Shown here in pieces: positions 2,870-27,383 of a stretch of DNA of 64,000 nt. A model generated the notes under the pieces. The model saw only the letters and a list, made by a program, of their open reading frames with translations. It was not told the DNA's origin and ran no database searches. The DNA is taken from positions 66,587 through 130,586 of the forward strand of contig CAYVAJ010000002.1 of assembly GCA_964448725.1 (NCBI GenBank), in the 5' to 3' direction. Source of the DNA: an uncultured Gammaproteobacteria bacterium (lineage in GTDB: Bacteria > Patescibacteriota > Microgenomatia > Levybacterales > GWA1-39-11). Position 1 is the first letter of the stretch, and every line of letters starts with the position of its first letter. A program made the translations under genes and the position numbers.

Positions 2870-3172
2870 CTAGGATTTATTTGTAACTTTATAGACTTTA
2901 CCGTTGCTATCATAGGTTGTCCATTCACCTACACGTTTACCCATGTCAAAATATCCAGATCGTTTTAAGGTTCCGTCTGGGCGATACCATTCCCAGTAAC
3001 CATCTGTTTTACCTTCTACAATTTTTCCTTTTGACCAACGAGTTTTCCCATTTGCGTGATACTTAATGGTATAACCATCTATGATTTCAATTTTCTTCTC
3101 TGTAACACCATTTGGATGAACAATAATGTCACATTTGTTTTCAAGACAGTCGTGTTTATTGGGATCTATCAT
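2870..3172 (-). CDS. MORN-repeat variant protein (YwqK-like)
   Basis: repeated G-x-W-x-x-Y/W...DG units (GKTDGYWEWYRPDGTLKRSGYFDMGKRVGEWTTYDSNGKV). Confidence 0.55.
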   Translation of the reverse strand: MIDPNKHDCLENKCDIIVHPNGVTEKKIEIIDGYTIKYHANGKTRWSKGKIVEGKTDGYWEWYRPDGTLKRSGYFDMGKRVGEWTTYDSNGKVYKVTNKS

Positions 3173-6878: not shown

Positions 6879-7271
6879 ATGAAAGGATATGTATTAAATA
6901 TTGAAGATACAACAGAAAAAAATTCTGATTACAGACGGGTACTTTATACTGGACGATATTTACAGCTTGTAGTCATGAGTTTAAAGCCAAGAGAAGAGAT
7001 TGGTCAGGAAATTCACGGACTGGATCAATTTATTCGGATTGAAAGGGGTCTGGCAAAAATAGTACTAAATAATGGAGAAACTGAATACGATTTGAAAGAC
7101 AATTGGGCAGTCATTATTCCCGCAGGAACGTATCACAATGTTATTAATACTGGAGATGAAGATTTAAAGTTATATACTATTTACTCGCTTCCAGCTCACT
7201 TAAAAGATACCCTTCAATCTACCAAAACGGATGAGAAAGAAGATCACTTTGATGGAATAACCTCAGAATAG
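6879..7271 (+). CDS. cupin-domain protein
   Basis: cupin beta-barrel motifs (QEIHGLDQFIRIERG ... PAGTYHNVINTGDEDLKLYTIYS). Confidence 0.65.
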   Translation: MKGYVLNIEDTTEKNSDYRRVLYTGRYLQLVVMSLKPREEIGQEIHGLDQFIRIERGLAKIVLNNGETEYDLKDNWAVIIPAGTYHNVINTGDEDLKLYTIYSLPAHLKDTLQSTKTDEKEDHFDGITSE

Positions 7272-7289
7272 TAAATTATTACTCATTTG

Positions 7290-7871
7290 CTAATGTGAGA
7301 TGACTCCATAATCTTTGCTAACTGGGTCCTGAAAAAGAAAATTTTCCGGAGGGAAAAAGGTAAAATAAACGAATGAAAAAAGTAGTGCCAGAATAATAAA
7401 TGCACCAATTTTTTTTAAATTGAGCCTTTTTTCAATATAAAGTATCCTATATCCTGCATATTGACCGATGAGTATAGAAATTACAAAGATTGCTATATCT
7501 AAAAATAAGTAGTTCTCACCAAGAATTGCTGTGTACACATAAAAAAGAATAGGTATCGAAATACCGTAAGCTGCAATAGTAACAGCTTCGGCAATCACAA
7601 AGTTTTCATTTCTTACCTTAAAGAAATAATATTTAACAAGCATCCAAATAAGAAGTGGCCAAAAACCAAGCTTGATATGCTCCCATGTACTCTCATTAAC
7701 CGCAGCGATTGGTGCAACTATTAGAGAATTATTGCTCCACTCGAAAACAAAGTGTAGTGCTGCACCTAATACTAGGGTAAACAATGATCCTCCTAGAGCA
7801 AGATGTATTGAAAAGTTTTTCATAAGTGAATTGTACCAAAATACATGAATCTCTTTTTTTATTAGTACCAT
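7290..7871 (-). CDS. integral membrane protein (hypothetical)
   Basis: five to six hydrophobic helices; no catalytic motif. Confidence 0.4.
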   Translation of the reverse strand: MVLIKKEIHVFWYNSLMKNFSIHLALGGSLFTLVLGAALHFVFEWSNNSLIVAPIAAVNESTWEHIKLGFWPLLIWMLVKYYFFKVRNENFVIAEAVTIAAYGISIPILFYVYTAILGENYLFLDIAIFVISILIGQYAGYRILYIEKRLNLKKIGAFIILALLFSFVYFTFFPPENFLFQDPVSKDYGVISH

Positions 7872-8477: not shown

Positions 8478-8551
8478 TGGTTGCCGAGCAGGGATTCGAA
8501 CCCCAATAAACGGATCCAGAATCCGTTGTCCTACCATTAGACGACTCGGCA
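8478..8551 (-). tRNA. tRNA-Gln (anticodon CUG), CCA encoded
   Basis: hand-folded cloverleaf: acceptor TGCCGAG/CTCGGCA with U1:A72 (typical of bacterial tRNA-Gln); anticodon loop TTCTGGA; T-loop TTCGAAT; discriminator A; 3' CCA. Confidence 0.85.
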
Positions 8552-8652
8552 GTGTTGCTGTGCTTCAATGATCAATTTCCAATTAACAAATTCCAAAAAT
8601 AATTTCTGTGATTCGCGTTCTCTATTTTACTAAAGATGGGGGATATTTCAAA

Positions 8653-9834
8653 CTATTTGCGGTTTTTTATGTCATTTCGCATATATCTAAGCTGATTGTG
8701 TCCCCAGAATAATACAAGAAATATTATGATGCCCGAAATATAGTAGGGAAGCGGTAATATGATTTCAGCCATAATTCCTCCTGTAATAGGTCCTACTACA
8801 CGGGCTAACGCTGATGCACTTTGTGCCACCCCCATGACAGCTCCCTGTTCTTCAGGTTTAGATTCAAGAGAGATAAGAGCTTGAATATTTGAATTCATAA
8901 GTGAGAAACCAACAGAGGATATCATACCCGATAGGATAATAAAGATTTCATTGAACGCCAAACCTATTCCAATAGTCGAGATTCCAAAAATTAACATACC
9001 AATTTTTATCAGTCTGGGTTCATCAAACTTTCTCAATAGTAATCTGATCAGAAATGCTTGTGTTACAAACTGACCAATACCTATAGCAACAAAATAATAT
9101 GAGGTTTGTAACTCATTCCAACCGAATCTTGCCTCAGTATATAAAGGTAATATACCTATAATAAGGGCAAGTGATGCGCTGGTTAGAAAGAACAGAAAAA
9201 TTAGGAAAGAAATATTCTTAGGAGTTAGTACCTCCTTTATAACTTTTGTATTTACAATTTCTATCTTGATTTCTTTTTGTAATGCTTTATTTGACTCGGG
9301 TAGAGCAAAGAATACAAAGATTGCATTAACGAGGGACAAGATAGCTGTCAGAAGAAATGGAAAGTGTATTCCGTACTGGTCAGCGGTTACTCCTCCAAGA
9401 AACGGCCCAATAATAAAGCCAAGACCAAACATTGAGTTAATAAGTGCAAGTCTTTTTGTACGTTCTTGGGATTTAGACGTATCTGCGACATATGCATATA
9501 CAACTGGAAGATTTCCTGTTGCTACTCCTCCCAAGATTCGCCCGATCATAATAATCCACAGATTTGGAGCAAGCCAGATGATTCCGTATGCCACAACGTT
9601 AAGTAATAGAGTAATTGCCAGTATAGGTTTCCGACCAAACTTATCAGAAAGTCTTCCCCAAATCGGAGTAAAAATAAATTGGAACAAGGAGTAGAGTCCT
9701 ATCACAACTCCTACAAGAAATGGATTATAACCACTTACGTCTTGAATCAATTGAGGGATCAACGGAATAACAATACCGAATCCGGCCAAGTCAATAAACA
9801 CAATAAATAGTAATATTAATAATTGTTTGTTCAT
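8653..9834 (-). CDS. MFS transporter (drug/H+ antiporter-like)
   Basis: 12 predicted TM helices; MFS signature loop GRLSDKFGRKP. Confidence 0.8.
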   Translation of the reverse strand: MNKQLLILLFIVFIDLAGFGIVIPLIPQLIQDVSGYNPFLVGVVIGLYSLFQFIFTPIWGRLSDKFGRKPILAITLLLNVVAYGIIWLAPNLWIIMIGRILGGVATGNLPVVYAYVADTSKSQERTKRLALINSMFGLGFIIGPFLGGVTADQYGIHFPFLLTAILSLVNAIFVFFALPESNKALQKEIKIEIVNTKVIKEVLTPKNISFLIFLFFLTSASLALIIGILPLYTEARFGWNELQTSYYFVAIGIGQFVTQAFLIRLLLRKFDEPRLIKIGMLIFGISTIGIGLAFNEIFIILSGMISSVGFSLMNSNIQALISLESKPEEQGAVMGVAQSASALARVVGPITGGIMAEIILPLPYYISGIIIFLVLFWGHNQLRYMRNDIKNRK

Positions 9835-10088: not shown

Positions 10089-12488
10089 ATGAATCTGTCT
10101 AATAAATCCAAAACAAAATTAATTCCTGTAATCCCAATTCGAGACGGCATTGTTTTTCCTCATACAGAAAGTATTCTAACTTTTGGTCGTCCAAAAAGTT
10201 TGGCAGCACTTGAGTCAGCATTCTCTGGTGAGCGTGTTGTCTGTTTTGTTCTACAACGTAATCCTCGTCAAAATGATCCAAATCCTGAAGACCTCTATAG
10301 TATGGGTACTGTCTCACACATTGAACGCATGATTCGTTCTGACGGGGAAGTAAATGCATTAGTCCGCGGACTTACCCGTTCAAAAATTATTTCTTATGAA
10401 GATAAAGGTAACTATTTCCTTGCAGAAATTGAAGAAATAGATGAAGATGATACTGCAAATGCTGAAATTAAAGCACTTACCAATCATTTAATTAGTGAGT
10501 TTAAAAAAGCGCTCAATTATGGCAAACAAGCAGACTTTCTGGTGTTTATGAATATTATGTCTGAGATTACTGCCGGAGAACTTGCTGATCAAATTGCCTC
10601 AACACTTGATATCAAAGGAAGTGAACGTCAGGAAATTTTAGAAACAATCGATGTAAAGAAACGGCTTGAGAAAGTATCAGAATTCCTCTCAAGAGAAGTA
10701 AAGGTGCTTGAGCTCGAGCGGAAAATTGCCTCTAAAACACAAGAACAATTTGAAAAGAATGCAAAAGAAGCGATTCTGCGAGAAAGACTTAAGACAATAG
10801 AAAAAGAGCTTGGTGAATCAGATGAGGGTGGAGAAGTTCGTGAGTTACTTGACAAAATTCGCAAAGCAGGAATGCCAAAAGATGTCGAAGAAAAAGCTCG
10901 CAAAGAACTGCGTAAATTACAACAGACAACCCCATACAATCCTGAAGCAGGATATATTCGTAATTATCTTGAATGGTTAGTCGCACTGCCATGGAGTAAA
11001 AAGACAAAAAGTACTCTTGATATGAAAAAAGCAGAAGAAGTACTGAATGAGGAACATTATGGCCTTGAAAAAGTAAAAGAGCGAATTGTTGAGTATCTCG
11101 CTGTCCATAAACTGTCTGGAAAAATGAAAGGTCCGATTATCTGTTTTGTAGGGCCGCCAGGTGTAGGTAAAACATCTATTTGTAAATCAATTGCAAAATC
11201 ACTGAATCGTAAATTTGTAAAGCTCTCGCTTGGAGGTATCAGAGATGAAGCAGAGATTCGTGGACATAGACGTACGTACGTTGGTGCATTACCAGGACGA
11301 ATTATCCAGGGTATTAAAGATGCAGGCACAAAAAATCCAGTGTTCATGCTTGATGAAATCGATAAAGTTGGCAGTGACTTTAGAGGTGATCCTACGGCAG
11401 CACTTCTTGAAGCGCTTGATCCAGAACAAAACGACAAATTTGGTGATCACTATCTAGATGTAGATTTTGATCTTTCAGATGTAATGTTTATCACCACAGC
11501 TAACATGTTGGATACTATACCACCTGCGCTTCGTGACAGACTTGAGATTATTCGGTTTGCTGGATACACAGAAGATGAGAAGTTCCACATTGCTAAAAAT
11601 TTCTTAGTTAAAAAACAGCGTGAGGCACACGGTCTGAAAGCAGAAGATGTAAAAATGACTGATGATGCACTCAGATATATCATCAGACGGTATACTCGTG
11701 AAGCAGGTGTTCGAAGTCTCGAACGTGAAATTGCAGCAGTGATGCGAAAGGTAGCAAAAGGAGTTGCTGCAGGAAAGAAAGCAAAAGTAGAAGTAACACA
11801 AAGAATTGTAACTAAATATCTGGGTCCTGCAAAATTTGCTTCAACGATTGCTGAGAAGAAAAATGAAGTGGGTATTTCAACAGGACTTGCCTATACTGAG
11901 GTTGGAGGAGATATTCTCTTTATTGAGATTGCGCTCATGCCGGGTAAAGGTAGACTTACTCTTACTGGAAAACTTGGTGATGTCATGAAAGAATCAGCAC
12001 AAGCTGCACTATCTTATATCAGGTCTCGGGCAAAGAAACTTGGACTGGCAGAAGATTTCTATGACAAAATTGATATCCATATCCATGTACCTGAGGGTGC
12101 AGTACCAAAAGATGGACCATCAGCAGGAACAGCAATTACAACTGCTATTGTCTCAGCACTCACCAAAATTCCGACTAACCATTTAGTAGGTATGACAGGT
12201 GAAGTAACTCTGCGCGGACGAGTGCTTGAGATTGGTGGAGTCAAAGAAAAGGTAATTGCAGCACATCGCGCTGGACTAAAGACAATAATCATGCCAAAAG
12301 AGAACAGAAAAGATCTTGAAGATGTACCGAAAGAAGTGATTAAGGACTTACGATTTGTATTCGTTAATCATATGGATGATGTATTAAAGGTAGCACTTAC
12401 CAAACCATTACCGGGATTTAAAGAATTAAAGGGTGAAAAGGAAATGAAAAAAAATCTGACATTACTTCGACCCACTCCAGCTGAATAG
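10089..12488 (+). CDS. lon: ATP-dependent Lon protease (endopeptidase La)
   Basis: Lon N-domain; AAA+ Walker [10 protein letters not shown]; protease Ser-Lys dyad region [10 protein letters not shown]; 799 aa. Confidence 0.95.
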
Positions 12489-12613
12489 CCTGTAATAAAC
12501 TGTTTTATTTGCATCTTTTGTAAGAAAATGCCTGAGAACATCTCGATTATTGTCTATAATGGTTCTCCAGAAAGTAAGTGAATTTTACATAATAATTTAG
12601 TACCTATAGTATA

Positions 12614-12642
12614 TTGACAGAATTAAAATTTCTGGGTATACT
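12614..12642 (+). promoter_or_regulatory. near-consensus sigma70 promoter (TTGACA-17-TATACT), here called P3
   Basis: TTGACA 12614-12619; 17-nt spacer; TATACT 12637-12642. Confidence 0.55.
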
Positions 12643-12646
12643 GAGA

Positions 12647-12703
12647 AGCAACCATATTAAGAACTGGCGAAAGTCAACTTCTTGAGACCGGTTGCTTTTT
12701 TTG
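12647..12703 (+). terminator. stem (AGCAACC/GGTTGCT) plus U7 tract; closes a roughly 55-nt transcript from P3 (candidate sRNA or attenuator)
   Basis: inverted repeat 12647-12653/12690-12696 followed by TTTTTTT at 12696-12703; internal sub-hairpins. Confidence 0.45.
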
Positions 12704-13162
12704 TACCTAAAAATCAGTCTTTTTAGACAGTTCTTTAACAAGATGTTTTATTCAGAAATTATTTTTAAGTAAAGACTGTGAAGAGAGGGCTGATTTTCTT
12801 CAGTGTTCCCTTCGCAGTCTTTGCTTACCGGCTGTGCCGGATGACGGAGGCAAAGTGGAATTGAGAGGAACAATCTTCTATTCGTAACCTTGGGACGTCA
12901 TCCCATAACAACCATTCGATTTCATTGAAAGGTACGGTCATGTTGCTCCCCGACTTTCTCCCCGACGATGTTTACGTAGACCTCATCATTGTGATGAGGT
13001 ACAACGAGATTCTTAAGGAGAAATTTCGGATGGCTGCACGCCGTGCAGTCAATAGAAAATATGAAAGTTTCGCATAGCTGACGTTTCGCTTTTCGTGAAA
13101 GGAGGCGCCTATACGCCTTTCTGTTCTTCAGTGGGGACATCGATTCATTGGAAGGGATCATC

Positions 13163-13468
13163 ATGGACACTGAAAAAAATAGTGCTTACTCCTCCTACAT
13201 GAGAAAGGAGATGGCGTGGTGGTACGAAAAGCTGTCCTCGCTTGAAGAGGAAGTTTTTCATGCACTGCTGCGCGTCTTGCAGACACCCTGCCGGGTGTTC
13301 TCAGAATGGGAAGAGGAAGCTCTTGCCCGTGAGGGGATCTGTGGACCATCTGGGCCTTGCGGATGCGGGACATACACCCGCAGAATGTTTTACCACTCGG
13401 TAGATGCCCTTCGGGCAGTCCTGCCGAGCTTCCACCGCAACAACTTCACAATCAGGTACGCCGCCTGA
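13163..13468 (+). CDS. hypothetical small protein (101 aa) in the GC-rich island
   Basis: RBS GGAAGGG 6 nt upstream of ATG 13163; Cys/Gly-rich segment EGICGPSGPCGCGTYTRR; overlapping antisense ORFs make coding status uncertain. Confidence 0.3.
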   Translation: MDTEKNSAYSSYMRKEMAWWYEKLSSLEEEVFHALLRVLQTPCRVFSEWEEEALAREGICGPSGPCGCGTYTRRMFYHSVDALRAVLPSFHRNNFTIRYAA

Positions 13469-13610
13469 TACACAACTGAATAAAATATTTAACAGCCAAT
13501 GGCTGTACATCGTGCAATAGCACGAAAATGAGCACGGGGTTATCAGGTGACAAGGTATGCTTTGCTGCATAAATGGCTTGTCTCCCGACGACTTTTACTG
13601 CTCATTATTG

Positions 13611-13641
13611 CCGGGCGGGGACACACTACTTCCCCGCTCGG
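13611..13641 (+). repeat. 11-bp-stem hairpin, copy 1 (CCGGGCGGGGA-N9-TCCCCGCTCGG)
   Basis: near-perfect inverted repeat; a second copy lies at 14292-14318. Confidence 0.7.
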
Positions 13642-13688
13642 ATACGCTCATTTCCTACAGTAGATCATTCTCATTTTTTTATTCATTA

Positions 13689-13717
13689 TTGACTCTCTTT
13701 TTGCAAGCAATTATACT
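13689..13717 (+). promoter_or_regulatory. near-consensus sigma70 promoter P1 (TTGACT-17-TATACT)
   Basis: TTGACT 13689-13694; 17-nt spacer; TATACT 13712-13717; lies within a repeat shared with 14360-14388. Confidence 0.55.
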
Positions 13718-13918
13718 GGTGAACAACCATGTAATTGGTTAAAAGCACCTTAAAGTTGAAGTGGTATTATTTCCATAAAATCCTTTAATTATATTCAGAA
13801 TTGCTCATGAGAGGAGAGTGTATAACTCTTTTGTGGTGAGCAATTCTGTTCGTTTAGAGAAAGGAGTTTATATTCGCGGTTTCTGTAGCGGTAGTGGGAT
13901 TACGAAAGGATCTCGATA

Positions 13919-14203
13919 ATGCAGGAGTCTGTTGTTGCAGACGAAGAGACTCAGGTGGGCTTAGTACTTGTCGTTCCTGCTCTGGTGTACGGACATGGTC
14001 GGCATGTAGAGTCAGTTGATGGCTTTGCCCGCCACAAAGACTGTCGTATTGTTCCTATTCCGACAGATCCGAAGAACGTGATCGTTCACTTGGGTCCTTC
14101 TTGGAGGTGTAAAACCTCTGATGGGATTACTTATATCTCTAACAACGATGGGCTCGTGTGCTACTACTGTGGGGAGTCACCTCGCGCCATCTTCTTTCTG
14201 TAG
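13919..14203 (+). CDS. hypothetical small protein (94 aa)
   Basis: AAAGGA 8 nt upstream of ATG; downstream of P1 after a roughly 200-nt hairpin-rich leader. Confidence 0.3.
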   Translation: MQESVVADEETQVGLVLVVPALVYGHGRHVESVDGFARHKDCRIVPIPTDPKNVIVHLGPSWRCKTSDGITYISNNDGLVCYYCGESPRAIFFL

Positions 14204-14291
14204 CACAAGATGAGCACCGGGTAGTCTTGGGAAGAGTAGTGCGCTGAAAGCACAATATCTCGTCTCCTGATAACTTGTACGCTCATCATAC

Positions 14292-14318
14292 CCGAGCGGG
14301 GACTCACTCCCCGCTCGG
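14292..14318 (+). repeat. 11-bp-stem hairpin, copy 2 (CCGAGCGGGGA-CTCAC-TCCCCGCTCGG)
   Basis: perfect 11-bp inverted repeat with the same 3' arm as copy 1. Confidence 0.7.
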
Positions 14319-14359
14319 TATACACATTTCAATATATTTTATAACTGCTTGCTGCGTTA

Positions 14360-14388
14360 TTGACTCTCACATATATTGTCTTTATACT
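14360..14388 (+). promoter_or_regulatory. near-consensus sigma70 promoter P2 (TTGACT-17-TATACT)
   Basis: TTGACT 14360-14365; 17-nt spacer; TATACT 14383-14388; flanking TTATTGACTCTC identical to P1. Confidence 0.55.
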
Positions 14389-14557
14389 TGTCCTCAATTG
14401 GGTCAGAATTTTAGCGTAATAAAGATTGCTTGGTTCTGATTTTATTTTAATTTGTACATTAACAGCTATTTGGAAATGTAATATTTCACAGAATCGCCGT
14501 GAGAGCAGAGTAGTAATACTCTTTTCTTCCGGCGGTTTTGTAAAGAAAGGGGGTACT

Positions 14558-14875
14558 GTGTATCGCTTTGGCATTATTGTCATGATCATGTGTCTTGTGA
14601 TTGCACCACTCATTGTGGCGCATGATGCTGTTGTCGTACTAGCTGTGTTGCTAAGCATGAACCTTCTCTGGCTTGCAGGATTTTTTCAGTCTGCAAAGCG
14701 CACTGCTTCTCGTGCACACCTTGAACAGATATACCAAACATTGGGTGTGCTTACCGGTCCTTGGTATGCAACCAAGTATACTTACGTCCAGATCAAGAGT
14801 CAGAATCATGAGGCAACAAAACCTTTGAGAAAGGAGTATGCCGTATGGCAGTCCAGAAGGTTTAGAACGGTGTAA
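14558..14875 (+). CDS. small membrane protein (about 105 aa, GTG start)
   Basis: RBS AAGGGGG 4-5 nt upstream of in-frame GTG 14558; two hydrophobic helices (FGIIVMIMCLVIAPLIV / AVVVLAVLLSMNLLWLAGFF); the track ORF starts further upstream at 14426. Confidence 0.4.
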   Translation: MYRFGIIVMIMCLVIAPLIVAHDAVVVLAVLLSMNLLWLAGFFQSAKRTASRAHLEQIYQTLGVLTGPWYATKYTYVQIKSQNHEATKPLRKEYAVWQSRRFRTV

Positions 14876-15397
14876 GCCGTTTTGTAGCTTTACTCGAATT
14901 ATTGAAGGGATAACTCATGACAAATCGGAGTAAGGGTGGATATCCAGAAAAGTCTTCTGTTCCGAATGCGCCTCGCAAACTTGTGATCGCAATTCGCGAA
15001 TACCGGAATCGAAGACAGAAGATCAATACTAACCGTAAGGATATGCGTTCAAAGAAGAATCCACTCCTTACCTAGTTCCAGATAGACACTGCGTTGGAGG
15101 ACATGGTAATCACTATGACAGCTGTACAATCGAAATCAATCGCTGAGGTTGATACGCGATCTGCAGTTTTCCTCCAACGCAGATCACATTTTTGATTTCA
15201 ACCTCTTATTTAGGTATAATTCTAGAGCCTTAAGGCGGTTTATGGTTAGTGGATTATGGTCATTAGGCAGTAAATATCTCTTTATTAATAATTCGTAAAC
15301 CATGAATCATTGACGGCCCCATCGTTTCCGATGATGGTATCATTCGGAATCCCGATGGAAACTACCATCGGGGCTAGAGGCTATATATAATACGTAT

Positions 15398-15652
15398 ATG
15401 TACTGTATGTACATTTTACAGAGAGAGGTTGATAATTCCTTTTATATAGGAAGCACGGACAATATTGATAAGAGGATTGATAAGCATAATAAAGGGTATT
15501 CAAGGTACACGAAGAGTAAAAGACCTTGGAAATTAGTGTATAACGAAATTTATAATACTCTTTCAGAGGCAAGAAAACGCGAATATTATTTAAAGTCACT
15601 TAAGAGCAGAACTGCAATAGAAAAGTTAATTAAAATTGGCCCCATCGTCTAG
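15398..15652 (+). CDS. GIY-YIG nuclease-domain protein (YhbQ/UPF0213-like)
   Basis: YILQREVDNSFYIGSTDNIDKRIDKHNKG ... YYLKSL matches the single-domain GIY-YIG family; 3' end overlaps the start of tRNA-Glu by 15 nt. Confidence 0.7.
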   Translation: MYCMYILQREVDNSFYIGSTDNIDKRIDKHNKGYSRYTKSKRPWKLVYNEIYNTLSEARKREYYLKSLKSRTAIEKLIKIGPIV

Positions 15653-15710
15653 AGGCCTAGGACATCAGGTTCTCATCCTGAAAACCGGGATTCGAATTCC
15701 CGTGGGGTCA
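15638..15710 (+). tRNA. tRNA-Glu (anticodon CUC), no encoded CCA
   Basis: hand-folded: acceptor GGCCCCA/TGGGGTC; D-stem GTCT/GGAC; anticodon stem TCAGG/CCTGA with loop TTCTCAT; T-stem CGGGA/TCCCG with loop TTCGAAT; discriminator A. Confidence 0.8.
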
Positions 15711-17160
15711 CTAAAGTTGTTTTATTGCCTGCAAAATCACCGATTAGATTGAAAGGAAGCCCTAAAGTAGCGGTTCCAAATCCTTCGTTGCTAACAGGCA
15801 TGCCACTTGGAAATAACAATGACTGGAACCTTTGTTTGTTCTCCAAATTAGACTCAAACCACAGTGATGCTACATTATCAAAGAGTGTTTCTACTAAAGA
15901 TATTAAGTGGTCTATATTTGTCTCACTCTCTCTGTAGTCTCCACGTTCAATTTCTTTTACAGTAATATTATCGTTTAATTGTTTAACCTGTGATTTATAA
16001 TCCTCATCTGAAACAATACCGTCAAGGTTTTTCTTAAGCAGTTTATCTTTCATATTTTTAAAGTGCATGATTTCTAAATCTATATTTCTAAGAGCTGTCT
16101 CTGCTTCAAGATGTTTCCTCTTCCATACATCACGTACTATTAATTGAAACAGCTTTGAGAGCTCCTGATTTGGCTGTATTGTTTTTATATACTCATAAAA
16201 TAAATTATCTAACTGCTCTTGTCTTACCCTGACAGCTCCGCATATACAATGATAGTAAGAGTATTTTAGACGTCTTCCTTTTGATTTGCTTCCTGTTAGC
16301 CTCTTCCCACAATCTGAACACGTTAGCACGCTTTTAAGTGGAAAGGTGGGATTTTTACTAAAGTGTGGTATAGCTGCTGTAACCGACTTTCCCAAACGTA
16401 TATTGTTTACTGTGTAGAATAATTCTTTACTAACTAATGGCTCGTGGGCTCCTACATGCTCTTCTCCCCACGCTTCAACTACTCCCATGTACAACTTGTT
16501 TGAAAAAATCTTTATCATTAGTTGTGGGGTTATACGTTTATTCTTCTCAGTTCTCAATCCCATCCTATTAAGTTTCTTGCTAATAGAAATGACTGAGTAT
16601 CCACCTTTGGCGTAAGTTTCAAATGCAGTCTTAATATAGGAAGCTCTAGTGTTATCAATAATTAACCCTGCAGGTGAATTTTTATAACCAATAGGAGCTT
16701 TCCAAGGCCAGTGTCCTTGTCGTGCCTTTTCTTTCATACCTTCCTTTGTCCTATCTGAACGAACATCATTGTCAAACTGTGCGATAGAAGAAAAAATGTT
16801 CTCCATTAACTTTCCCGCTGGAGTATCATCAATTTGTTCTGAAACAGACCGGAGTTTTACTCCCACTTTTAGTAATGCTGCTCTTACTGCGCTATGGTCT
16901 GCGGTATTTCTAGAGAACCTATCTAATTTATGGACTAATAAAATGTCTATCTTACCTCTATTTTCGTGACAAAATTTTAGAAGTTTTAGGAGCTGAGTTC
17001 TGTCTGCGGTTTTTGCTGACTCTCCTTGTTCTTGGAATACTTGAACAATATTCCAACCCATTCTCTCTGCGTATTCTTTACACAATTTTTCCTGGTACGT
17101 TAAGCTGTAACCCTCTATTTGTTCTTTTGTGCTGACTCTTGTGTAAAGAATGACATTCAT
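15673..17160 (-). CDS. large serine recombinase (resolvase/invertase catalytic domain, recombinase domain and zinc-ribbon)
   Basis: N-terminus MNVILYTRVSTKEQ with catalytic Ser; ...HKLDRFSRN...; C-terminal CxxC...C zinc-ribbon region; last 12 codons are antisense to the tRNA-Glu T-arm. Confidence 0.85.
   Translation of the reverse strand: MNVILYTRVSTKEQIEGYSLTYQEKLCKEYAERMGWNIVQVFQEQGESAKTADRTQLLKLLKFCHENRGKIDILLVHKLDRFSRNTADHSAVRAALLKVGVKLRSVSEQIDDTPAGKLMENIFSSIAQFDNDVRSDRTKEGMKEKARQGHWPWKAPIGYKNSPAGLIIDNTRASYIKTAFETYAKGGYSVISISKKLNRMGLRTEKNKRITPQLMIKIFSNKLYMGVVEAWGEEHVGAHEPLVSKELFYTVNNIRLGKSVTAAIPHFSKNPTFPLKSVLTCSDCGKRLTGSKSKGRRLKYSYYHCICGAVRVRQEQLDNLFYEYIKTIQPNQELSKLFQLIVRDVWKRKHLEAETALRNIDLEIMHFKNMKDKLLKKNLDGIVSDEDYKSQVKQLNDNITVKEIERGDYRESETNIDHLISLVETLFDNVASLWFESNLENKQRFQSLLFPSGMPVSNEGFGTATLGLPFNLIGDFAGNKTTLVTPREFESRFSG
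15695..15711 (+). repeat. attL-like 17-bp direct repeat (tRNA-Glu 3' end)
   Basis: exact copy of 21704-21720. Confidence 0.7.
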
Positions 17161-17169
17161 AGTATTTAC

Positions 17170-17379
17170 TTAATTCCCATTTTCGCTTTTTAGCTTCAAG
17201 GAGTCAATAACCCCACGTTGTTTTTTGGAACCGTAAGTGTCAATGTATATTTCTGCTAACACCTCCATGCTGTTAATCAGAGAGAGAAGCTCATCATCGG
17301 TAAACTTACTGGCACTCTTTCCTAATATTCTTTTAGCGGTTTTTAAGGTTACTGTTTTCATCCTGCCTATATTAGGCAT
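17170..17379 (-). CDS. hypothetical small protein (element cargo)
   Basis: ORF only. Confidence 0.35.
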   Translation of the reverse strand: MPNIGRMKTVTLKTAKRILGKSASKFTDDELLSLINSMEVLAEIYIDTYGSKKQRGVIDSLKLKSENGN

Positions 17380-17419
17380 ATAAGCTGGATATGGAGATTG
17401 TAATATTTGGGTCTAAAAA

Positions 17420-17851
17420 TTACTCAGTAAATGCCAGTTCTTTATCTTTCTCTTCCATAATTTTCAGTGCATCAGCCAGAATATCAGGCGATACATTGAA
17501 GGTGTTATTCTGTGTGGCTTTTACTAGAGGAGAAGCATCTGTGATACCATGAGAAGCCTTTAAGAGAAATGCTGCAAACCTCGCGTTATATTTGTTGCTA
17601 AGTCCCCCGGAGATGAGCAAGTGTCTTTGAGCGTCACGAAGCATCTCCATCGTCTGCATAAAATCAGAATGCTCCTTCTCCCACTCGTATAATACCCTTG
17701 TTCCTACCCCTAAATAAGACGCTAAATGCTCAATAGTGGGAAATTCATCATTTTGAAGACACTTCTTTGTGTAATGCATTACACGTTTCGGAGTCTCTTT
17801 TGTGTACTTTGTAGGTCTTCCTCTTTTGAGTGTAAATATCTGTTGCTCCAT
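17420..17851 (-). CDS. phage terminase small subunit-like HTH protein
   Basis: GRPTKYTKE...IEHLASYLGVGTRVLYEWEKEHSDF...N..F..FLLK pattern typical of TerS proteins of Firmicutes phages and PICIs. Confidence 0.6.
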   Translation of the reverse strand: MEQQIFTLKRGRPTKYTKETPKRVMHYTKKCLQNDEFPTIEHLASYLGVGTRVLYEWEKEHSDFMQTMEMLRDAQRHLLISGGLSNKYNARFAAFLLKASHGITDASPLVKATQNNTFNVSPDILADALKIMEEKDKELAFTE

Positions 17852-17902
17852 ACTAATATTATCTCACTAATGAAGCTACTTTGTAATGTGATTTCAGTCT
17901 AA

Positions 17903-18574
17903 ATGTACTATAATCCCATCAATGTGTCATATAAAGTAATTCTGGAAAATTCTATAAAAAGTATCTTTGATGACTTTGAGAAAATGGGAGGTCATATAAA
18001 AAACCCATCAATCATTGATAGATACTTAATTGCTGCAACTTATAAAGCTGCTAGACTAACTAACACTCTCATTTTGCTATGTGAGAACGGAAAATGTGAG
18101 GATGCATTAATAATTCTGCGGTCTTTAATAGAACATACTGTAAATATGCGGTGGATTACTACCAGAGATACTAAAACAAGGATAAAAATGTATGTTAATG
18201 ATATTAGCGATAAAGGATTTGGTGCTCAATGGACCGATGTAAATTTATATGACAGAATGAAACAAATTAGTTTTGAAGATAAGGACTATTTTGATTTTTG
18301 TGTAAAGCTAACCTACTCCTATGCCCATGTAAACGCATTGTCACTAAGATGGGGAGAAGTATATGATGACCCCAGGTTAAGAGACGATGATTGGCCTCCT
18401 GATGCAATCTATCAAGTTGCTGCTCAGATGACTGGACATGTAATGCTTGCTTTGAATAAAAACTACAAAGAATATTTTAAGGGTTATGATAGGCTATGGG
18501 AGAGCATTCCGGTTGATAAGGATATCAGAAAAAAATATGAGGAAGTTAAGGAGAAGTTGAAAAATGAACGATAA
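17903..18574 (+). CDS. hypothetical protein (helical; possible defence-associated partner of the downstream HNH gene)
   Basis: ORF overlaps the next gene by 11 nt (operon); no catalytic motif recognised. Confidence 0.4.
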   Translation: MYYNPINVSYKVILENSIKSIFDDFEKMGGHIKNPSIIDRYLIAATYKAARLTNTLILLCENGKCEDALIILRSLIEHTVNMRWITTRDTKTRIKMYVNDISDKGFGAQWTDVNLYDRMKQISFEDKDYFDFCVKLTYSYAHVNALSLRWGEVYDDPRLRDDDWPPDAIYQVAAQMTGHVMLALNKNYKEYFKGYDRLWESIPVDKDIRKKYEEVKEKLKNER

Positions 18575-19319
18575 ACAGAGTTGCGTATTTTGTCATAGTA
18601 CCTCTAATAAGATGTCACGTGAACATGTGTTTCCAAACTGGTTGTGCAATCTATACCCAGAAGAAACAATGATAATAAACCAATTTATTGGTAAATCTCA
18701 AAATATTTGGCCTTCAAAAATATTTCAACATAAAGCAAAAGTAGTATGTGAACCCTGTAATAATGGCTGGATGGCTGACCTGGAAGGTGAAGTTAAGCCA
18801 ATCCTTAGTAAAATGATGCGATTATCACCCTATGTTTTGAATGAAAGAGCCCAGGCTACTTTATCATTTTGGGCTCAAAAAACGCTGTTAATGCTCAATC
18901 AAGCAGTTCCTGGAGACCTCAAGATAACTTCTGACCTGTATGATGATTTATATACCAAGAAATCAGCATCCTCTAAGGTGCTTGTACAAATAGGCTGGAG
19001 AATGCTCAATAGAGGTACAAAAGATGAACCAATCGCAAGTTTTGAATTAAAACAGATACCTTCTGTAGAAGTGCCCCGAGAACTATTAGGGGCTCTTGAA
19101 AAGCAAAAAGACTCAGGAGGCTTTATATGGAAAGCTGTCATTGCGATTGGACCAGTAGTCTTTGAAATGGCTGGTCATAATATGCAGATAACTCTTACAG
19201 TAGGCACGAACAGCAAGGTCTTCATTCCAATAAGGCCTTATAGGCAAGATATAACTTGGCCGCTGGAATGGCCGATAGAAGCTGAGGGTGGGTTACCAGA
19301 GATAAAGAGACGGCAATAA
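18564..19319 (+). CDS. HNH-endonuclease-domain protein
   Basis: N-terminal CVFCHSTSNKMSREHVFPNWL ... CEPCNNGWM (C-x2-C ... EH-x2-P ... C-x2-C-N), an HNH/His-Me finger. Confidence 0.6.
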   Translation: MNDKQSCVFCHSTSNKMSREHVFPNWLCNLYPEETMIINQFIGKSQNIWPSKIFQHKAKVVCEPCNNGWMADLEGEVKPILSKMMRLSPYVLNERAQATLSFWAQKTLLMLNQAVPGDLKITSDLYDDLYTKKSASSKVLVQIGWRMLNRGTKDEPIASFELKQIPSVEVPRELLGALEKQKDSGGFIWKAVIAIGPVVFEMAGHNMQITLTVGTNSKVFIPIRPYRQDITWPLEWPIEAEGGLPEIKRRQ

Positions 19320-19404
19320 ACAATATCTATATCCTTATAAGACCATAGCTTTAGTCCACGCTGGATGCCATCAGGGGAGGTATATGGTTTATGAGTGTGT
19401 ACTC

Positions 19405-20364
19405 CTATGCCATACCCAAGTACTGCATTATTGCTGATGCAATCATTGAGCCTGCTGTATTATTTGCTACAGATATACTTCCTTTACCTATCATAATCAT
19501 GACTCTTGATATCCAACTCGTTGTAGCAGGTCCTGGTTGTTCCTCGGATTTCTCGTCCTTAGACAAAGCGTCTTCTAACTCAGTTATCAGTGCGTCTGTT
19601 ACACCCAATTCCTTAAGAGATTTTTTTAATCCATCAAAGTCCCCTGGGCGTACAACTATATTGTTCTGGGTTGTAGCACCAAAATTACCCACAGAAACGT
19701 TACCCCCGTATATTATGTTATGAACATTTTGAGTAACTTTTTTGTCAGTAGGTGGAGATACTTCAACCTCTTCTTTCCCTTTACTACCCTTAATATCTAA
19801 TTCGTCTTCTATGCTGAGAACAAATTCAAGTACCCGTGTTCTTATTGTATCCAGTATTCCTCCCAACCTAGCTTTGCTAATCACCCTCCAAGCAGAAGCG
19901 AGTACCATGCCTCCACTAAATATCTCTTTGGTTTGATAAAATGCAATAACATCTGCGGGCCAATGTGACGACAGTGTGTCTGTCTTATCTCCTTGTGAGG
20001 ATAATTCTTCCAGTTCTGCAACTGGCTCAGTCATATAGTTTGTGAATAACATTTTCCGATGCTTCTTATCTATAACTGACTGTGGTACTTGTATATTACG
20101 ATATCCACTTCCGAATGGACCTGAGAGATGGCCCATTACCTGTGCTCCAAACTCTCTATAATCAGGTAATCCATCATTAGATGTATACCCATTAAGCTCA
20201 GATTGAGACCATTTCACTAGTTCATCATTTTGCAGCAACTTTCCGAGTCTCATGCAGAGACGCAACACTTCACTCAGAGGAATGTCATGACCAGTTGAGC
20301 CATCTTTAATTTTTTTTATGAGTTCACTGACTTCACTTAAATCTACAGTTTTATTCTCTGCCAT
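19405..20364 (-). CDS. AbiTii-like abortive-infection protein
   Basis: N-terminal LSEVLRLCMRLGKLLQNDELVKWSQSELNGY matches the AbiTii N-domain signature (LRK.KVLA..L.N.E...W...ELNGY). Confidence 0.55.
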   Translation of the reverse strand: MAENKTVDLSEVSELIKKIKDGSTGHDIPLSEVLRLCMRLGKLLQNDELVKWSQSELNGYTSNDGLPDYREFGAQVMGHLSGPFGSGYRNIQVPQSVIDKKHRKMLFTNYMTEPVAELEELSSQGDKTDTLSSHWPADVIAFYQTKEIFSGGMVLASAWRVISKARLGGILDTIRTRVLEFVLSIEDELDIKGSKGKEEVEVSPPTDKKVTQNVHNIIYGGNVSVGNFGATTQNNIVVRPGDFDGLKKSLKELGVTDALITELEDALSKDEKSEEQPGPATTSWISRVMIMIGKGSISVANNTAGSMIASAIMQYLGMA

Positions 20365-20417
20365 TTGTCAGCTATTATAGCACTCCACCGGTGTTTAATG
20401 ATTACACAAAAATGAGG

Positions 20418-21386
20418 TCAATTATAGGCACTGCACTGTTGCTGGTACGCTTCATCGTTCTTAACTTCTTGTTCCATCTTATTTCTAGTTCCTGTCCATA
20501 CACATTCATTGTATTGGGTCTCCGTAAGTGAATTGGCTTCCTTTAATTGCGTACAAGCAACTATGGAGTCTTGAGTTTTTTCCTCTACTGAAAGGGTAAT
20601 CCCCAGTGCGGGGTTCAAGTCTACATCCTCCTTTAATCTAGCAAAAATTGACCTTCTTTCCTCGTCATGCAGCTGATTTAAGAAAATTGACTGTGCCGTA
20701 AAAGCATCAGCCTCCTGTCCAAAACATTCCAATTTTTCTTTAGTCTCACGTTGATATATCTCCTGTCCTACATGTGTTAGCTCATGTATTAAAATAGTAG
20801 CAATTGAGAGGTCATCGTAAGTCTTGTACTGGGGGTGCAGTATAATTTTCAATGCATCTGTTGGGGAATCCGTCATAAATCCTCCTTCTAAGTCCATTTC
20901 AGATGCCTCTTCTGAATACTGAATATCAAGACAGTTTCTGTAATCAAAAGCCCTTCCATAGTACGAGCCGGGGTTATTCTCTATATCCAACCGCTGTGAT
21001 ATCAAATCCAAGGCTCTATTAATTTCTGGCTCTAAAGCGTGTGGAGTACCTCTCAAACAGCGTGCTACTGGTGCTGTTCTCGCACTGTATTCCATATACC
21101 CAACTAACCCTGTCCCTAACAGCCAAAAAATGATTAGAAAGACTGAAACCATCCTAAATCGCTTCTTCCAAAATGTTATTACTGAAAACAAGGCTGTAAA
21201 GACTGCCCATAAGATGACAACCCTCCACATGTTTTCTCCACCAATGGCTGCCCGTTGCTCATAGAGTAACCCGTCCGCGGTTCTCATGAACGGGAACATC
21301 GCTACAAAAAATATCACAGTTACAATTCCCAGAAGAAATAGGCGGGAAAATATCCTTTTAACTGATAGGTTATATCTCTTACTCAT
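20418..21386 (-). CDS. membrane-anchored HExxH zincin-like metallopeptidase-domain protein (DUF4157-like)
   Basis: three N-terminal TM helices; ILIHELTHVGQE motif resembling the DUF4157 HELxHVxQ signature. Confidence 0.45.
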   Translation of the reverse strand: MSKRYNLSVKRIFSRLFLLGIVTVIFFVAMFPFMRTADGLLYEQRAAIGGENMWRVVILWAVFTALFSVITFWKKRFRMVSVFLIIFWLLGTGLVGYMEYSARTAPVARCLRGTPHALEPEINRALDLISQRLDIENNPGSYYGRAFDYRNCLDIQYSEEASEMDLEGGFMTDSPTDALKIILHPQYKTYDDLSIATILIHELTHVGQEIYQRETKEKLECFGQEADAFTAQSIFLNQLHDEERRSIFARLKEDVDLNPALGITLSVEEKTQDSIVACTQLKEANSLTETQYNECVWTGTRNKMEQEVKNDEAYQQQCSAYN

Positions 21387-21703
21387 CTGTTTTCAGTATA
21401 TCTTAAAGAAAGAAAAAAAGTAGCAAAAAAAGAAAGAAAATAATTTTGGTTCATAAATCTACTGGTAGTTATATTGATAGGCTGGGGTGTGGCTGGGATA
21501 TACTACCTCTCTCCACTGGTCTAATGAGGCACGAACTTGGTTCCAATGCAAAAACATTTGGGTCACATAAAAAATATCTCGCAACAGTGCGAGATTTTTT
21601 TGTGGGATTTCACCGTAGGAAATTGAATATTTGTTCGTGCCGCTACGAAGTAGCTAATACCCTTGGGGTACGACACTTCGAAGAAGTTAGTCCTCTTGTA
21701 GGA

Positions 21704-21720
21704 AATTCCCGTGGGGTCAC
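21704..21720 (+). repeat. attR-like 17-bp direct repeat
   Basis: exact copy of 15695-15711. Confidence 0.7.
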
Positions 21721-21808: not shown

Positions 21809-22393
21809 ATGACTGACCAAAGTCAGGATCAATTATTGCCTGTCCGCCGAAGTCTTCCTTCCAAAAGAAAAGGTATTACGTGGGAAGGAAGGGTAGCTGG
21901 GCAGAAAGTCTATCTTCGGACAGGGGAGTTTGAAGATGGAACGATCGGTGAGATCTTCATTGACCTCCACAAGGAGGGGATGGCGATGCGGTCCATTATG
22001 AACTGCTTTGCGATAGCGGTAAGTAAAGGGCTTCAGTTCGGTGTTCCTCTTGAGGAGTTCGTGGAAACATTCACCTTCACCCGGTTCGAGCCACAAGGAA
22101 TTGTAGAAGGCCATCCCAACATCAAGATGGCAACATCTATAGTGGATTACGTGTTCCGTGTATTGGGTCATCACTATCTGGGGTGGGAAGACCTCGCTCT
22201 AACATCTGGCACGTCTGAGGTTACATCATCTCCAGTTGGGGAAAGTTACGCTGAACAGAGTATGTTTGCGCATCTTGAAAGGATGATGGGAGAAGCACCC
22301 TTCTGCAGTGTTTGCGGACATATTACAGCACGCAATGGAGCACTTTTCAAGTGTCTGAATTGTGGAAATAGTATGGAGGAGCCAAAAGACTAG
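21809..22393 (+). pseudogene. nrdJ: C-terminal fragment (NrdJb-like, 194 aa) of adenosylcobalamin-dependent class II ribonucleotide reductase
   Basis: [39 protein letters not shown]...TRFEPQG...[16 protein letters not shown] and a C-terminal Cys4 ribbon CSVCGH...CLNCG; no N-terminal 500-plus aa upstream, where the sequence is attR. Confidence 0.6.
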
Positions 22394-26101: not shown

Positions 26102-26467
26102 TTGAACTCGCGCTATAATTCTTTTGTTGTTCGTATAGATAGTCAGAGAGGACTTCACATGTGTGTCTCAGCTCATTGTGAGAATGCAACTGTGCTTCAT
26201 CTTCGGCAAGCAATCCAATTCTGCTCAAAGGAGCGAAACTGCACAGAGATGGGCTTGGAGGCTCATATCTCGCGTGAATGTAACACAGATTGTGCGCAAA
26301 AGGCTGTTGCCCAGCTCGAGGAGCTTGGGTTGATTACCTTTACAATGAGCGGTGAGATCGGATTCACCGTGAAAGCGAAGCATTTTCTCAATAGAGACAT
26401 GCAACGTCAGCCAGAAATCTTCGAATGTGATGAGATTGTTCTGGCAATGAACCGTCTTTTTGACTAG
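26102..26467 (+). CDS. hypothetical Cys-rich protein
   Basis: ORF followed directly by an intrinsic terminator. Confidence 0.35.
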   Translation: MNSRYNSFVVRIDSQRGLHMCVSAHCENATVLHLRQAIQFCSKERNCTEMGLEAHISRECNTDCAQKAVAQLEELGLITFTMSGEIGFTVKAKHFLNRDMQRQPEIFECDEIVLAMNRLFD

Positions 26468-26601: not shown

Positions 26602-26865
26602 TAATAAGATACGAAAGAGAGGTGAGGTAGAAATTTCGCTAGGTAGCAAAATAATCCTATAATATTGATTTTTCACTCTTTTTTTGCTAAAATAATACTG
26701 ATTTATCTAATAGTTGTTGAGTAATTACTTGGCATGAGTATTTGATGAATCAAGTTGCTCTTTAAGAGATTAAGAATCATTAGTACAGTAGATGGCGTAG
26801 TACCTATATTAGCTATATGTAGTACGCCGTCTATTGGCGCAGCAGTTTATTGCATGGAGGCATGA

Positions 26866-27198
26866 ATGTCCTATTTAGACGAGATCGACGAAGGTGGCTT
26901 TAATTCTAATGCACATCGGGCAACGCATGATCGTCCGTACTTTGGACGTCTGCAAGTTCTAAACATTGCAGAAGTCCAGGTAGGGAAGGTATATCAACGT
27001 GTCTACGCTTCAGGATCCGTGATAATCGAGATCCTAGAACCGCCTTTTAAGAAAAAGAACGGTTGGTGGGTAAAGGTCAGAAATCTGACGTACCCACGCG
27101 AAGACACGATATCCTTGGAGGACGCAGGTGTCACTCCATATCAGGGTGATAATGGCCCAGTATGGAATCCTAGAAACCATCTGCTGAGGGTGGAATGA
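26866..27198 (+). CDS. hypothetical protein (first gene of the fibre/ATP-synthase operon)
   Basis: RBS GGAGG; followed by a stem-loop at 27218-27249. Confidence 0.4.
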   Translation: MSYLDEIDEGGFNSNAHRATHDRPYFGRLQVLNIAEVQVGKVYQRVYASGSVIIEILEPPFKKKNGWWVKVRNLTYPREDTISLEDAGVTPYQGDNGPVWNPRNHLLRVE

Positions 27199-27383
27199 TT
27201 TTTTCTCTTTTCATTACTCCCTGCTGGGTTTTAAAAGCTTAGCAGGGAGTCTCTATTTAGAAGTATAAATTTTCATGATCACTGAATAAAAATTTCTTGT
27301 TTTTATGTAAGTATATCTTGATTTTGATTGCAATCTGGTGAAGTAATTGGGTATGATAGAATTGGGCGATTTAACAGTTACGA

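Follow-up and report, generated by a model that had tools for sequence, protein, structure and literature searches.

The 64-kb window analyzed here is the whole 64,000-nt stretch of contig CAYVAJ010000002.1, and it is the source of all coordinates below unless another contig is named. Between the lon gene (10089-12488) and a pair comprising a GIY-YIG gene of 84 amino acids (aa; 15398-15652) and tRNA-Glu (15638-15711), it contains a compact region at 12600-15190, referred to below as the lon-flank island. An earlier sequence-only reading had recognized these flanks correctly. It described 12600-14880 as rich in G+C and in hairpins, with three promoters and with overlapping short open reading frames (ORFs) on both strands, none longer than 150 aa, and proposed either a large structured non-coding RNA (ncRNA) of the OLE/GOLLD/ROOL type or horizontally acquired small-protein cassettes. 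As a description this proved accurate. A sliding GC run gave 0.45-0.52 for 500-nt windows in the island, that range lying at 12750-14000 and peaking at +3.4 standard deviations (sd), versus a mean of 0.366 (sd 0.038) for the 64 kb. The longest ORF has 149 aa (14426-14875), short ORFs do overlap on both strands, and the three promoter matches were located at 12614, 13689, and 14360 as claimed. The hairpins that had been named are also present. Two of them, ACCTCATCA-TTG-TGATGAGGT at 12980-13000 and CTGCAC-GCC-GTGCAG at 13034-13048, fall within the coding ORF A1, and GAATTGCTCA...TGAGCAATTC at 13798-13846 belongs to a leader hairpin of 24 bp. Nowhere in the 64 kb is structure denser than in the island. 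When 120-nt windows of the + strand are ranked by GC-adjusted stability, 12 of the top 25 lie within 12600-15100, the structure z averages -1.36 inside the island versus 0.05 outside, and values of z < -2 occur in 22% of island windows versus 2.2% outside; individual island elements reach a fold z of -4 to -6.5 against dinucleotide shuffles. The region is nevertheless not one object, but a tandem array of three or four autonomous + strand cassettes.

The order within a cassette is a sigma70-type promoter, an AU-rich leader, a long hairpin, a Shine-Dalgarno (SD) site, an orphan ORF or a pair of them, and, at the 3' end, a structured element and/or terminator; promoters and terminators divide the island into units of at most about 1 kb, all on the + strand. 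Cassette A begins with promoter P1 (12614-12642; TTGACA-17-TATACT, 11 of 12 consensus positions), followed at 12643-12707 by a three-tier hairpin and then U7 (-23 kcal/mol, z -4.0). A stable stem-loop with a U run after a promoter fits an intrinsic terminator, predicted either to attenuate cassette A or to end a short RNA of about 55 nt. Since P1 runs straight into it, downstream expression would need read-through or a second start. Beyond an AU-rich spacer lies leader hairpin A (12766-12827), which has a GAGAG core and 28-nt inverted-repeat arms and is located in a surrounding fold with z -6.5. The orphan ORFs A1 (12940-13077, 45 aa, also a gene call on Logan contigs) and A2 (13163-13468, 101 aa) follow, each behind an initiation region of the form TTCATTGRAAGG..ATG that is repeated in the window. 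The cassette closes with copy A of a 3' element, R (13525-13645, z -6.0), composed of a long imperfect hairpin (13528-13606) and a GC hairpin (13610-13641). Cassette B consists of promoter P2 (13689-13717; TTGACT-17-TATACT, 10 of 12), GAGAG-core leader hairpin B (13796-13848), the orphan ORF B (13919-14203, 94 aa), whose sole homologue is the same gene at 97% identity, and R copy B (14207-14318, z -6.2). In cassette C, promoter P3 (14360-14388; TTGACT-17-TATACT, likewise 10 of 12) precedes GAGAG-core leader hairpin C (14488-14541), with 16 nt between its end and the GTG at which ORF C (14558-14875) starts. The product of this ORF has 105 aa from GTG 14558, or 149 aa if begun at TTG 14426, with a hydrophobic N-terminal half. 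The basic orphan ORF D (14917-15075, 52 aa, a gene call on Logan contigs) comes next, and a Y-shaped 94-nt structure at 15089-15182, with 13-nt perfect inverted-repeat arms and z -5.5, marks the end of the island. It can be observed that the cassettes end after their ORFs in either the GC hairpins of R or this last structure. P2 belongs to a duplicated R-plus-promoter module, the copies of which are about 75% identical. Across four sequences, none of the 29 predicted pairs of R is broken and four show compensatory change; the R elements close with ATGAGCA/TGCTCAT and are limited to the window lineage. Promoter-like sites matching at least 10 of 12 positions number 3 in 2,281 nt versus 0.58 expected from the whole-window scan (Poisson P ~0.02), a modest enrichment, suggestive rather than striking.

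The same build recurs at the same place in two relatives. Relatives were ranked by Lon protein identity, and the closest Lon proteins all derive from metagenome-assembled genomes (MAGs) or metagenomes: a Joint Genome Institute (JGI) metagenome contig at 91%, three entries labelled 'uncultured Gammaproteobacteria' at 76-81%, and Candidatus Levyibacteriota at 76%. The host is a low-GC genome of the Candidate Phyla Radiation (CPR) type, the nearest named MAG in this Lon ranking being labelled Candidatus Levyibacteriota. An exact look-up of the window's Lon returned no entry. The three contigs titled 'uncultured Gammaproteobacteria' (L004, L005, and L025) match the Levyibacteriota MAG L006 in Lon, GC, and gene order, and are probably mislabelled bins. 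In L175 (Lon 91%) and L025 (Lon 81%), a GC-rich island lies directly after lon. That of L175 (8428-10000 of its contig) has promoters at ~8429 and ~9127, hairpins at 8511-8563 and 9313-9360, and ORFs of 51, 90, and 112 aa, after which comes a tRNA-Glu identical to the window copy. That of L025 (12660-14510) has promoters at 12665 and 13955, hairpins at 12839-12899 and 14096-14155, and ORFs of 124 and 72 aa; no tRNA-Glu was found in the 3.5 kb that this contig extends downstream of lon. In relatives at 76-78% Lon identity, lon is followed by ordinary genes or by the tRNA only. The islands of the window, L175, and L025 give no DNA or protein alignment with one another, except that P1 and its terminated leader align with L175. 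Here P1 and its flank are homologous to L175 9108-9160, and over 9108-9232 identity reaches 74%, approximately the same as for lon DNA. The L175 counterpart of the P1-proximal terminator lies at 9150-9232 (z -3.9, then U9), and 5'-proximal hairpins are significant only for cassette A and this counterpart. All island promoters of the window and of L175 share the -10 hexamer TATACT, while the other strong promoter-like sites in the window have mostly a TATAAT-type -10. In L025, the second cassette (13955-14510) comprises a near-consensus promoter (TTGACA-17-TATCAT) and a GAGAG hairpin, then about 350 nt of structured, GC-rich sequence and a strong terminator at 14482-14505 followed by T7; this represents either the remains of a gene or a true non-coding RNA.

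Comparison contigs from other samples allowed the coding status of the cargo to be assessed. The strain itself is present in samples SRR7082976, SRR7082982, SRR23814902, and SRR23814904. L255 and L256 are identical to the window, L001 and L002 are 98.5% identical, and L003 covers 12914-14169. Relative to L003, substitutions at the three codon positions number 1, 1, and 8 in A1 (7 synonymous, 2 non-synonymous) and 11, 10, and 34 in A2 (chi-square P = 4e-5), giving 12, 11, and 42 for both ORFs combined (P = 6e-7). In A2, the ratio of synonymous to non-synonymous changes is 24/18 in frame, as against 6/39 and 5/42 in the two other frames (24/18 versus 11/81 off frame, Fisher P = 1e-7), and the sole indel in the ORF is of 3 nt and in frame. 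The third-position bias, the in-frame synonymous excess, and the in-frame indel indicate that A1 and A2 are protein genes under purifying selection. A coding substitution pattern across the span is what the sequence-only reading had regarded as telling against it; such a pattern was found only over the roughly 444 nt of A1 and A2. A large structured ncRNA of the GOLLD, ROOL, or OLE kind, in which the small ORFs would be incidental, fits the high + strand structure density, the GC enrichment in an AT-rich genome, the adjacent tRNA, and the second cassette of L025, structured over some 350 GC-rich nt that hold no ORF of at least 50 aa. It does not fit the protein-like evolution of A1 and A2, nor a span segmented by three internal promoters and several terminator-like hairpins. 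Moreover, the Rfam scan, in which GOLLD, ROOL, OLE, HEARO, and raiA were sought, returned no island match at gathering score; across the 64 kb that score is reached by two tRNAs only, and 12400-15400 at E <= 10 yields only sub-threshold hairpins resembling miRNAs or snoRNAs. For the L175 and L025 islands, Rfam likewise returned tRNAs only. Beyond the short leader elements, neither sequence nor structure is conserved across relatives at 76-91% Lon identity. The large ncRNA is largely refuted and can be regarded as essentially excluded.

The other proposal of that reading, horizontally acquired small-protein cassettes, is supported in outline, by the foreign composition of the third codon positions, by the promoter, leader, and 3' structure that each cassette has of its own, and by the replacement of cargo between relatives. 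The GC excess is located in the cargo, at third codon positions. G+C at these positions (GC3) is 0.57 in A1, 0.63 in A2, 0.51 in B, 0.45 in C, and 0.43 in D, and 0.50-0.54 in the island ORFs of L175 and L025, compared with a host mean of 0.275 (sd 0.044; 39 window ORFs of at least 200 aa) and 0.25 for lon. The island leaders, at 0.36-0.40 GC, are host-like. Protein searches covering 5.8 billion and 1.8 billion sequences retrieved for A2, B, and C only the same genes, on near-identical Logan and NCBI contigs, together with one A2 relative at 81%; the homologues of A2 are P0001 and P0002 only. HMMER hits to A2 among the 1.8 billion representatives were eukaryotic tandem-repeat proteins and were rejected as artefactual. 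A sequence search of the PDB gave nothing, and the AlphaFold models were of low confidence, with a predicted local distance difference test score (pLDDT) of 46 for A2 and 54 for B (AF2). A peptide, QVG[LC][VIL]LL, is common to ORF B and to ORFs of L175 and L025, a similarity that was not significant.

Toxin-antitoxin-like modules, or small-protein defence or anti-defence modules, are one form that this cargo could take: type II-like in the case of A1/A2, or type I-like membrane peptides in the case of C. The islands do contain apparently bicistronic pairs, namely A1 and A2 in the window, 90 and 112 aa in L175, and 124 and 72 aa in L025, and both ORF C and the 51-aa ORF of L175 have hydrophobic stretches. 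The mRNAs are highly structured, P1 would drive a predicted short terminated RNA, cassette C is dispensable in a sister strain, and an integrative element carrying AbiTii lies nearby. However, no toxin, antitoxin, or defence family was matched when the gene pairs of the three islands were compared with Pfam, NCBIfam, and PADLOC, and the structure models are too poor for comparison of folds. No antisense promoter was found in the promoter scan of the island. The short RNA from P1 was also considered as an antisense regulator; its best duplexes with island transcripts (z about -3.8 among 559 windows) did not exceed background extremes and are not distinctive. Such modules are a possible but doubtful identity for the cassettes. 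The suggestion would refine the function of the cargo within the explanation preferred below and not replace it, with the leaders then providing the tight post-transcriptional control characteristic of toxin mRNAs.

The three islands have in common a long leader hairpin with a GAGAG core. Seven instances occur in the islands of the three genomes, all on the lon strand. All seven are located 70-140 nt downstream of a near-consensus promoter, and in five an SD-like purine run begins about 1-25 nt after the hairpin. The lower stem is of 12-18 bp, its sequence unrelated between instances. The 5' core is GAGAG in six and UAGAG in one, opposite UU[C/G]UN, and its pairing includes a conserved G.U wobble (6 of 7), two A-U pairs, and a middle G-C (three instances) or G.G (four). 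Above the core there is a mismatch of 0-1 nt, then an apical stem of 4-9 bp and a loop of 3-7 nt; the helices measure 22-28 bp and contain 1x1 internal loops. A strict descriptor, which requires a perfect stem of 11 bp no more than 2 nt from [G/T]AGAG, gave 13 matches on both strands of 2.97 Mb, of which 7 lie in about 6.5 kb of islands versus 6 in the other ~5.9 Mb (Poisson P = 2e-17). Nowhere else in the 64-kb window is the GAGAG-core hairpin present. A covariance model of hairpin C only recovered the first hairpin of L025 (E = 5e-6), hairpin B (8e-5), the second of L025 (0.014), the second of L175 (0.06), and hairpin A (1.3), with higher scores on the + strand. Two additional matches to the model, at 7254-7307 (-) in the window and 3071-3125 (-) in L025, were terminator-like, had no GAGAG core, and were discarded. 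An alignment of the seven hairpins by MAFFT and RNAalifold was misaligned, and was replaced by a manual structural alignment checked against the sequences. The apical pattern (AGAGT..ACTCTTTTCTT) had 91 matches in viral contigs, all of them ordinary AT-rich phage terminators with no lower stem, and was dropped from metagenome searches for that reason. The conserved wobbles, together with the strand bias, argue for an element that acts at the RNA level. The GAGAG hairpin is previously undescribed and has no Rfam entry, and is here considered a candidate cis-regulatory RNA motif.

RNase III sites in leaders are a familiar feature of the T7 early region, the lambda N leader, and the 5' stabilisers of SP82. 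The GAGAG hairpin resembles them, from sequence only, in offering about two helical turns of double-stranded RNA with small internal loops between promoter and ribosome-binding site (RBS), and its helices of 22-28 bp agree with the approximate minimum of 20 bp expected of an RNase III substrate. It differs from them by its invariant pentamer, and we know of no RNase III site with a pentamer comparable to GAGAG.

Comparison of strains reveals how the array changes. L003 is 82-92% identical to the window over cassette A and 100% identical from the P2 promoter onward. L001 and L002 show a single difference in 1.4 kb of cassette A, 5 in ORF B, and 21 in the 85 nt that follow the start of P3, within leader C. 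Divergence between the aligned strains is mosaic, and the two clearest switches between identity and divergence are situated at promoters, at P2 for L003 and just after the start of P3 for L001 and L002, which fits exchange by ordinary recombination at a conserved chassis. Furthermore, a 309-nt deletion in L001 and L002 (14497-14805) has taken out hairpin C together with ORF C. Its junction falls between two copies of a CAGAATC..TGAG repeat, the 5' arm of hairpin C being one of them, and 11 nt of microhomology explain the deletion.

These features call for comparison with integrons, in which the hairpins or R elements would be folded-DNA recombination sites served by an unidentified recombinase. 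The likeness to integron arrays lies in tandem small cassettes, unrelated cargo, and imperfect hairpins of conserved shape and variable sequence. In all three genomes a conserved chassis carries unrelated foreign cargo, the hairpins combine a conserved mismatched core with variable terminal structure, R elements stand at the 3' end of two cassettes, and the junction of the L001 deletion falls at the TGAG of a hairpin core. On the other hand, the island has no IntI or attC boxes, each cassette has its own promoter, and the hairpins are RNA-like and positioned 5' of the ORFs. Pfam scans of the ORFs from 6879 to 32976, that is, from 6 kb upstream to 17 kb downstream, detected no tyrosine recombinase, the sole recombinase being a serine recombinase in an element at tRNA-Glu, and neither type of hairpin contains, on inspection, the attC R''/R' boxes RYYYAAC/GTTRRRY. 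The conserved G.U wobbles and the bias to a single strand suggest an RNA and not a DNA element, R occurs in the window lineage only, and the microhomology already accounts for the deletion. An integron-like platform is thus barely plausible. In a broader version, the lon-flank island would be a lineage-specific CPR platform for gene capture and expression, a native chassis that takes up foreign ORFs, with the hairpins or R as unrecognised recombination sites or with GAGAG as the target of a dedicated RNA-binding regulator that would coordinate the expression of the whole cargo; this is a slim prospect.

The surroundings of the island suggest another origin, as the decaying debris of an old prophage or plasmid beside tRNA-Glu, the hairpins being ordinary terminators or palindromes. 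tRNA-Glu is an integration hot spot that adjoins a bona fide 6-kb integrative element (15695-21720), delimited by 17-bp direct repeats (AATTCCCGTGGGGTCAC; 15695-15711 and 21704-21720) that correspond to the 3' end of tRNA-Glu. On the - strand this element encodes a large serine recombinase (15673-17160), a small terminase of gp3-like type (17420-17851), and AbiTii (19405-20364); it also carries DUF5677, an HNH-like protein, and a metallopeptidase-like protein, and looks like a small defence island or satellite-like element; the lon-flank island lies outside it. The foreign GC3, the orphan ORFs, and the resemblance of the apical part of the hairpin to AT-rich phage terminators are also in keeping with debris. 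Yet the island had no blastn match in the phage and plasmid collections, its ORFs had no PHROG hits, scans of viral contigs with the GC-hairpin pattern of R and the promoter/leader pattern of P1 found nothing, and there are no att-like repeats around the island. The island of L025 is anchored to lon with no tRNA-Glu in the 3.5 kb downstream, A1 and A2 are under purifying selection, and the P1 leader is conserved as much as lon DNA. In addition, the GAGAG core and the layout recur in three genomes, on one strand, between promoter and SD. Debris is accordingly an unlikely account of the island.

Further observations were made on the flanks. The first 11 nt of tRNA-Glu (GGCCCCATCGT) are repeated at 15315-15325, followed by a hairpin of about 50 nt and then CTAGAGGC (tRNA nt 12-19). 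The GIY-YIG gene stands between this partial copy and the intact tRNA (15305-15652), and L175 has neither the partial copy nor the gene, which suggests that a GIY-YIG element was inserted at the 5' end of the tRNA. High-GC3 ORFs (0.44-0.47) are present at 21809-22393, 26102-26467, and 38471-39196; the first, with a TSCPD domain, is directly to the right of the attR repeat of the integrative element. A cassette at 26640-27250 resembles the island cassettes in style. It comprises a 110-aa orphan (26866-27198, GC3 0.46) just upstream of a 1594-aa gene, with its own promoter-like site, SD, and terminator (27218-27250), and a leader hairpin at approximately 26780-26835 that has no GAGAG core.

Taken together, we consider the lon-flank island to be a hypervariable, recombination-prone, moron-like accessory island at the 3' flank of lon with a conserved control hairpin, and assign this explanation a probability of about 0.62. 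It is favored because the units run from promoter to terminator with foreign small genes, because cargo is replaced between relatives, and because the island keeps its place beside lon. Portable homology would be provided by the conserved pieces of promoter, leader, and R, over which cargo genes may be swapped, duplicated, or lost through ordinary homologous or microhomology recombination. The GAGAG hairpin would act in cis at the RNA level, post-transcriptionally, most likely as a double-strand-specific (RNase III-type) processing site that leaves a 5' stabiliser upstream of the RBS, or alternatively as the binding site of a regulator. The small proteins would provide accessory functions, whether toxin/antitoxin-like, anti-phage, or in host interaction.

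Two known kinds of locus are close to such an island. Morons are independent transcription units found as insertions in phage or prophage genomes, each with a promoter and a terminator of its own and with deviant GC (PMC3594210). The cassettes resemble them in having their own promoter and a terminator-like end at the sequence level, in deviant composition, in small size, and in being present or absent among close relatives. They differ in lying outside a prophage, with no phage genes and no PHROG hits, in forming several tandem units at a conserved chromosomal locus, and in sharing a leader hairpin, a trait that has not been described for morons. The second is the hypervariable purF-radC island with acrIIA22 of clostridial CAG-217, where small ORFs lie between conserved genes with no recombinase (PMC8545432). 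Common to both are the fixed position, a few small and mostly uncharacterised ORFs, turnover between strains, and an island free of integrase and transposase. The difference is that lon-flank islands share no gene, their common part being non-coding (promoter, leader, and GAGAG hairpin), and that the host is of the CPR type. No link of the lon-flank island to phage gene pools was shown with the phage and plasmid collections or PHROGs. The kind of locus is therefore known in outline, while the GAGAG hairpin and the layout of conserved chassis and variable cargo in a CPR-type genome are new.

Several points weigh against this moron-like explanation. Coding selection is established for A1 and A2 only, and B, C, and D could be non-coding or decaying. 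The relatives available for comparison of these three ORFs are identical, lack the gene, or, for D, differ by 5 substitutions, 4 of the 5 between D and L001 being non-synonymous. The GC-rich third positions could reflect selection on mRNA structure instead of foreign origin. The island ORFs had 0 matches in Pfam, PHROGs, NCBIfam, and PADLOC, which leaves a function of the cargo proteins unsupported, and no + strand ORF of at least 50 aa is found in the second cassette of L025. The promoters and terminators discussed here are putative, as consensus matches only, and the RNase III role is suggested by helix length and internal loops only. As regards the motif, it rests on three independent genomes. 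In its lower stems, 84 of 84 alignment cells are paired, with 2-4 pair types per column, compared with a mean of 46.9 and a maximum of 59 after shuffling of partners, but this perfect pairing is partly built in by selection and the statistic partly circular, because the instances were chosen by eye while looking for hairpins. Independent evidence for the motif comes instead from its enrichment, fixed position, and invariant core.

For the biology of the organism, the speculative call of a giant ncRNA gives way to a recombination-prone locus at which strongly promoted orphan mini-genes are maintained and exchanged by an ultra-small symbiotic bacterium. If the hairpin is only a processing site, the island would represent ordinary, tidy moron-like gene turnover. 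The GAGAG hairpin is a candidate motif that can be searched for across CPR genomes. Should the cargo consist of toxins, defence proteins, or factors for host interaction, the locus would serve as a convenient marker of fast-evolving accessory functions in uncultivable organisms.

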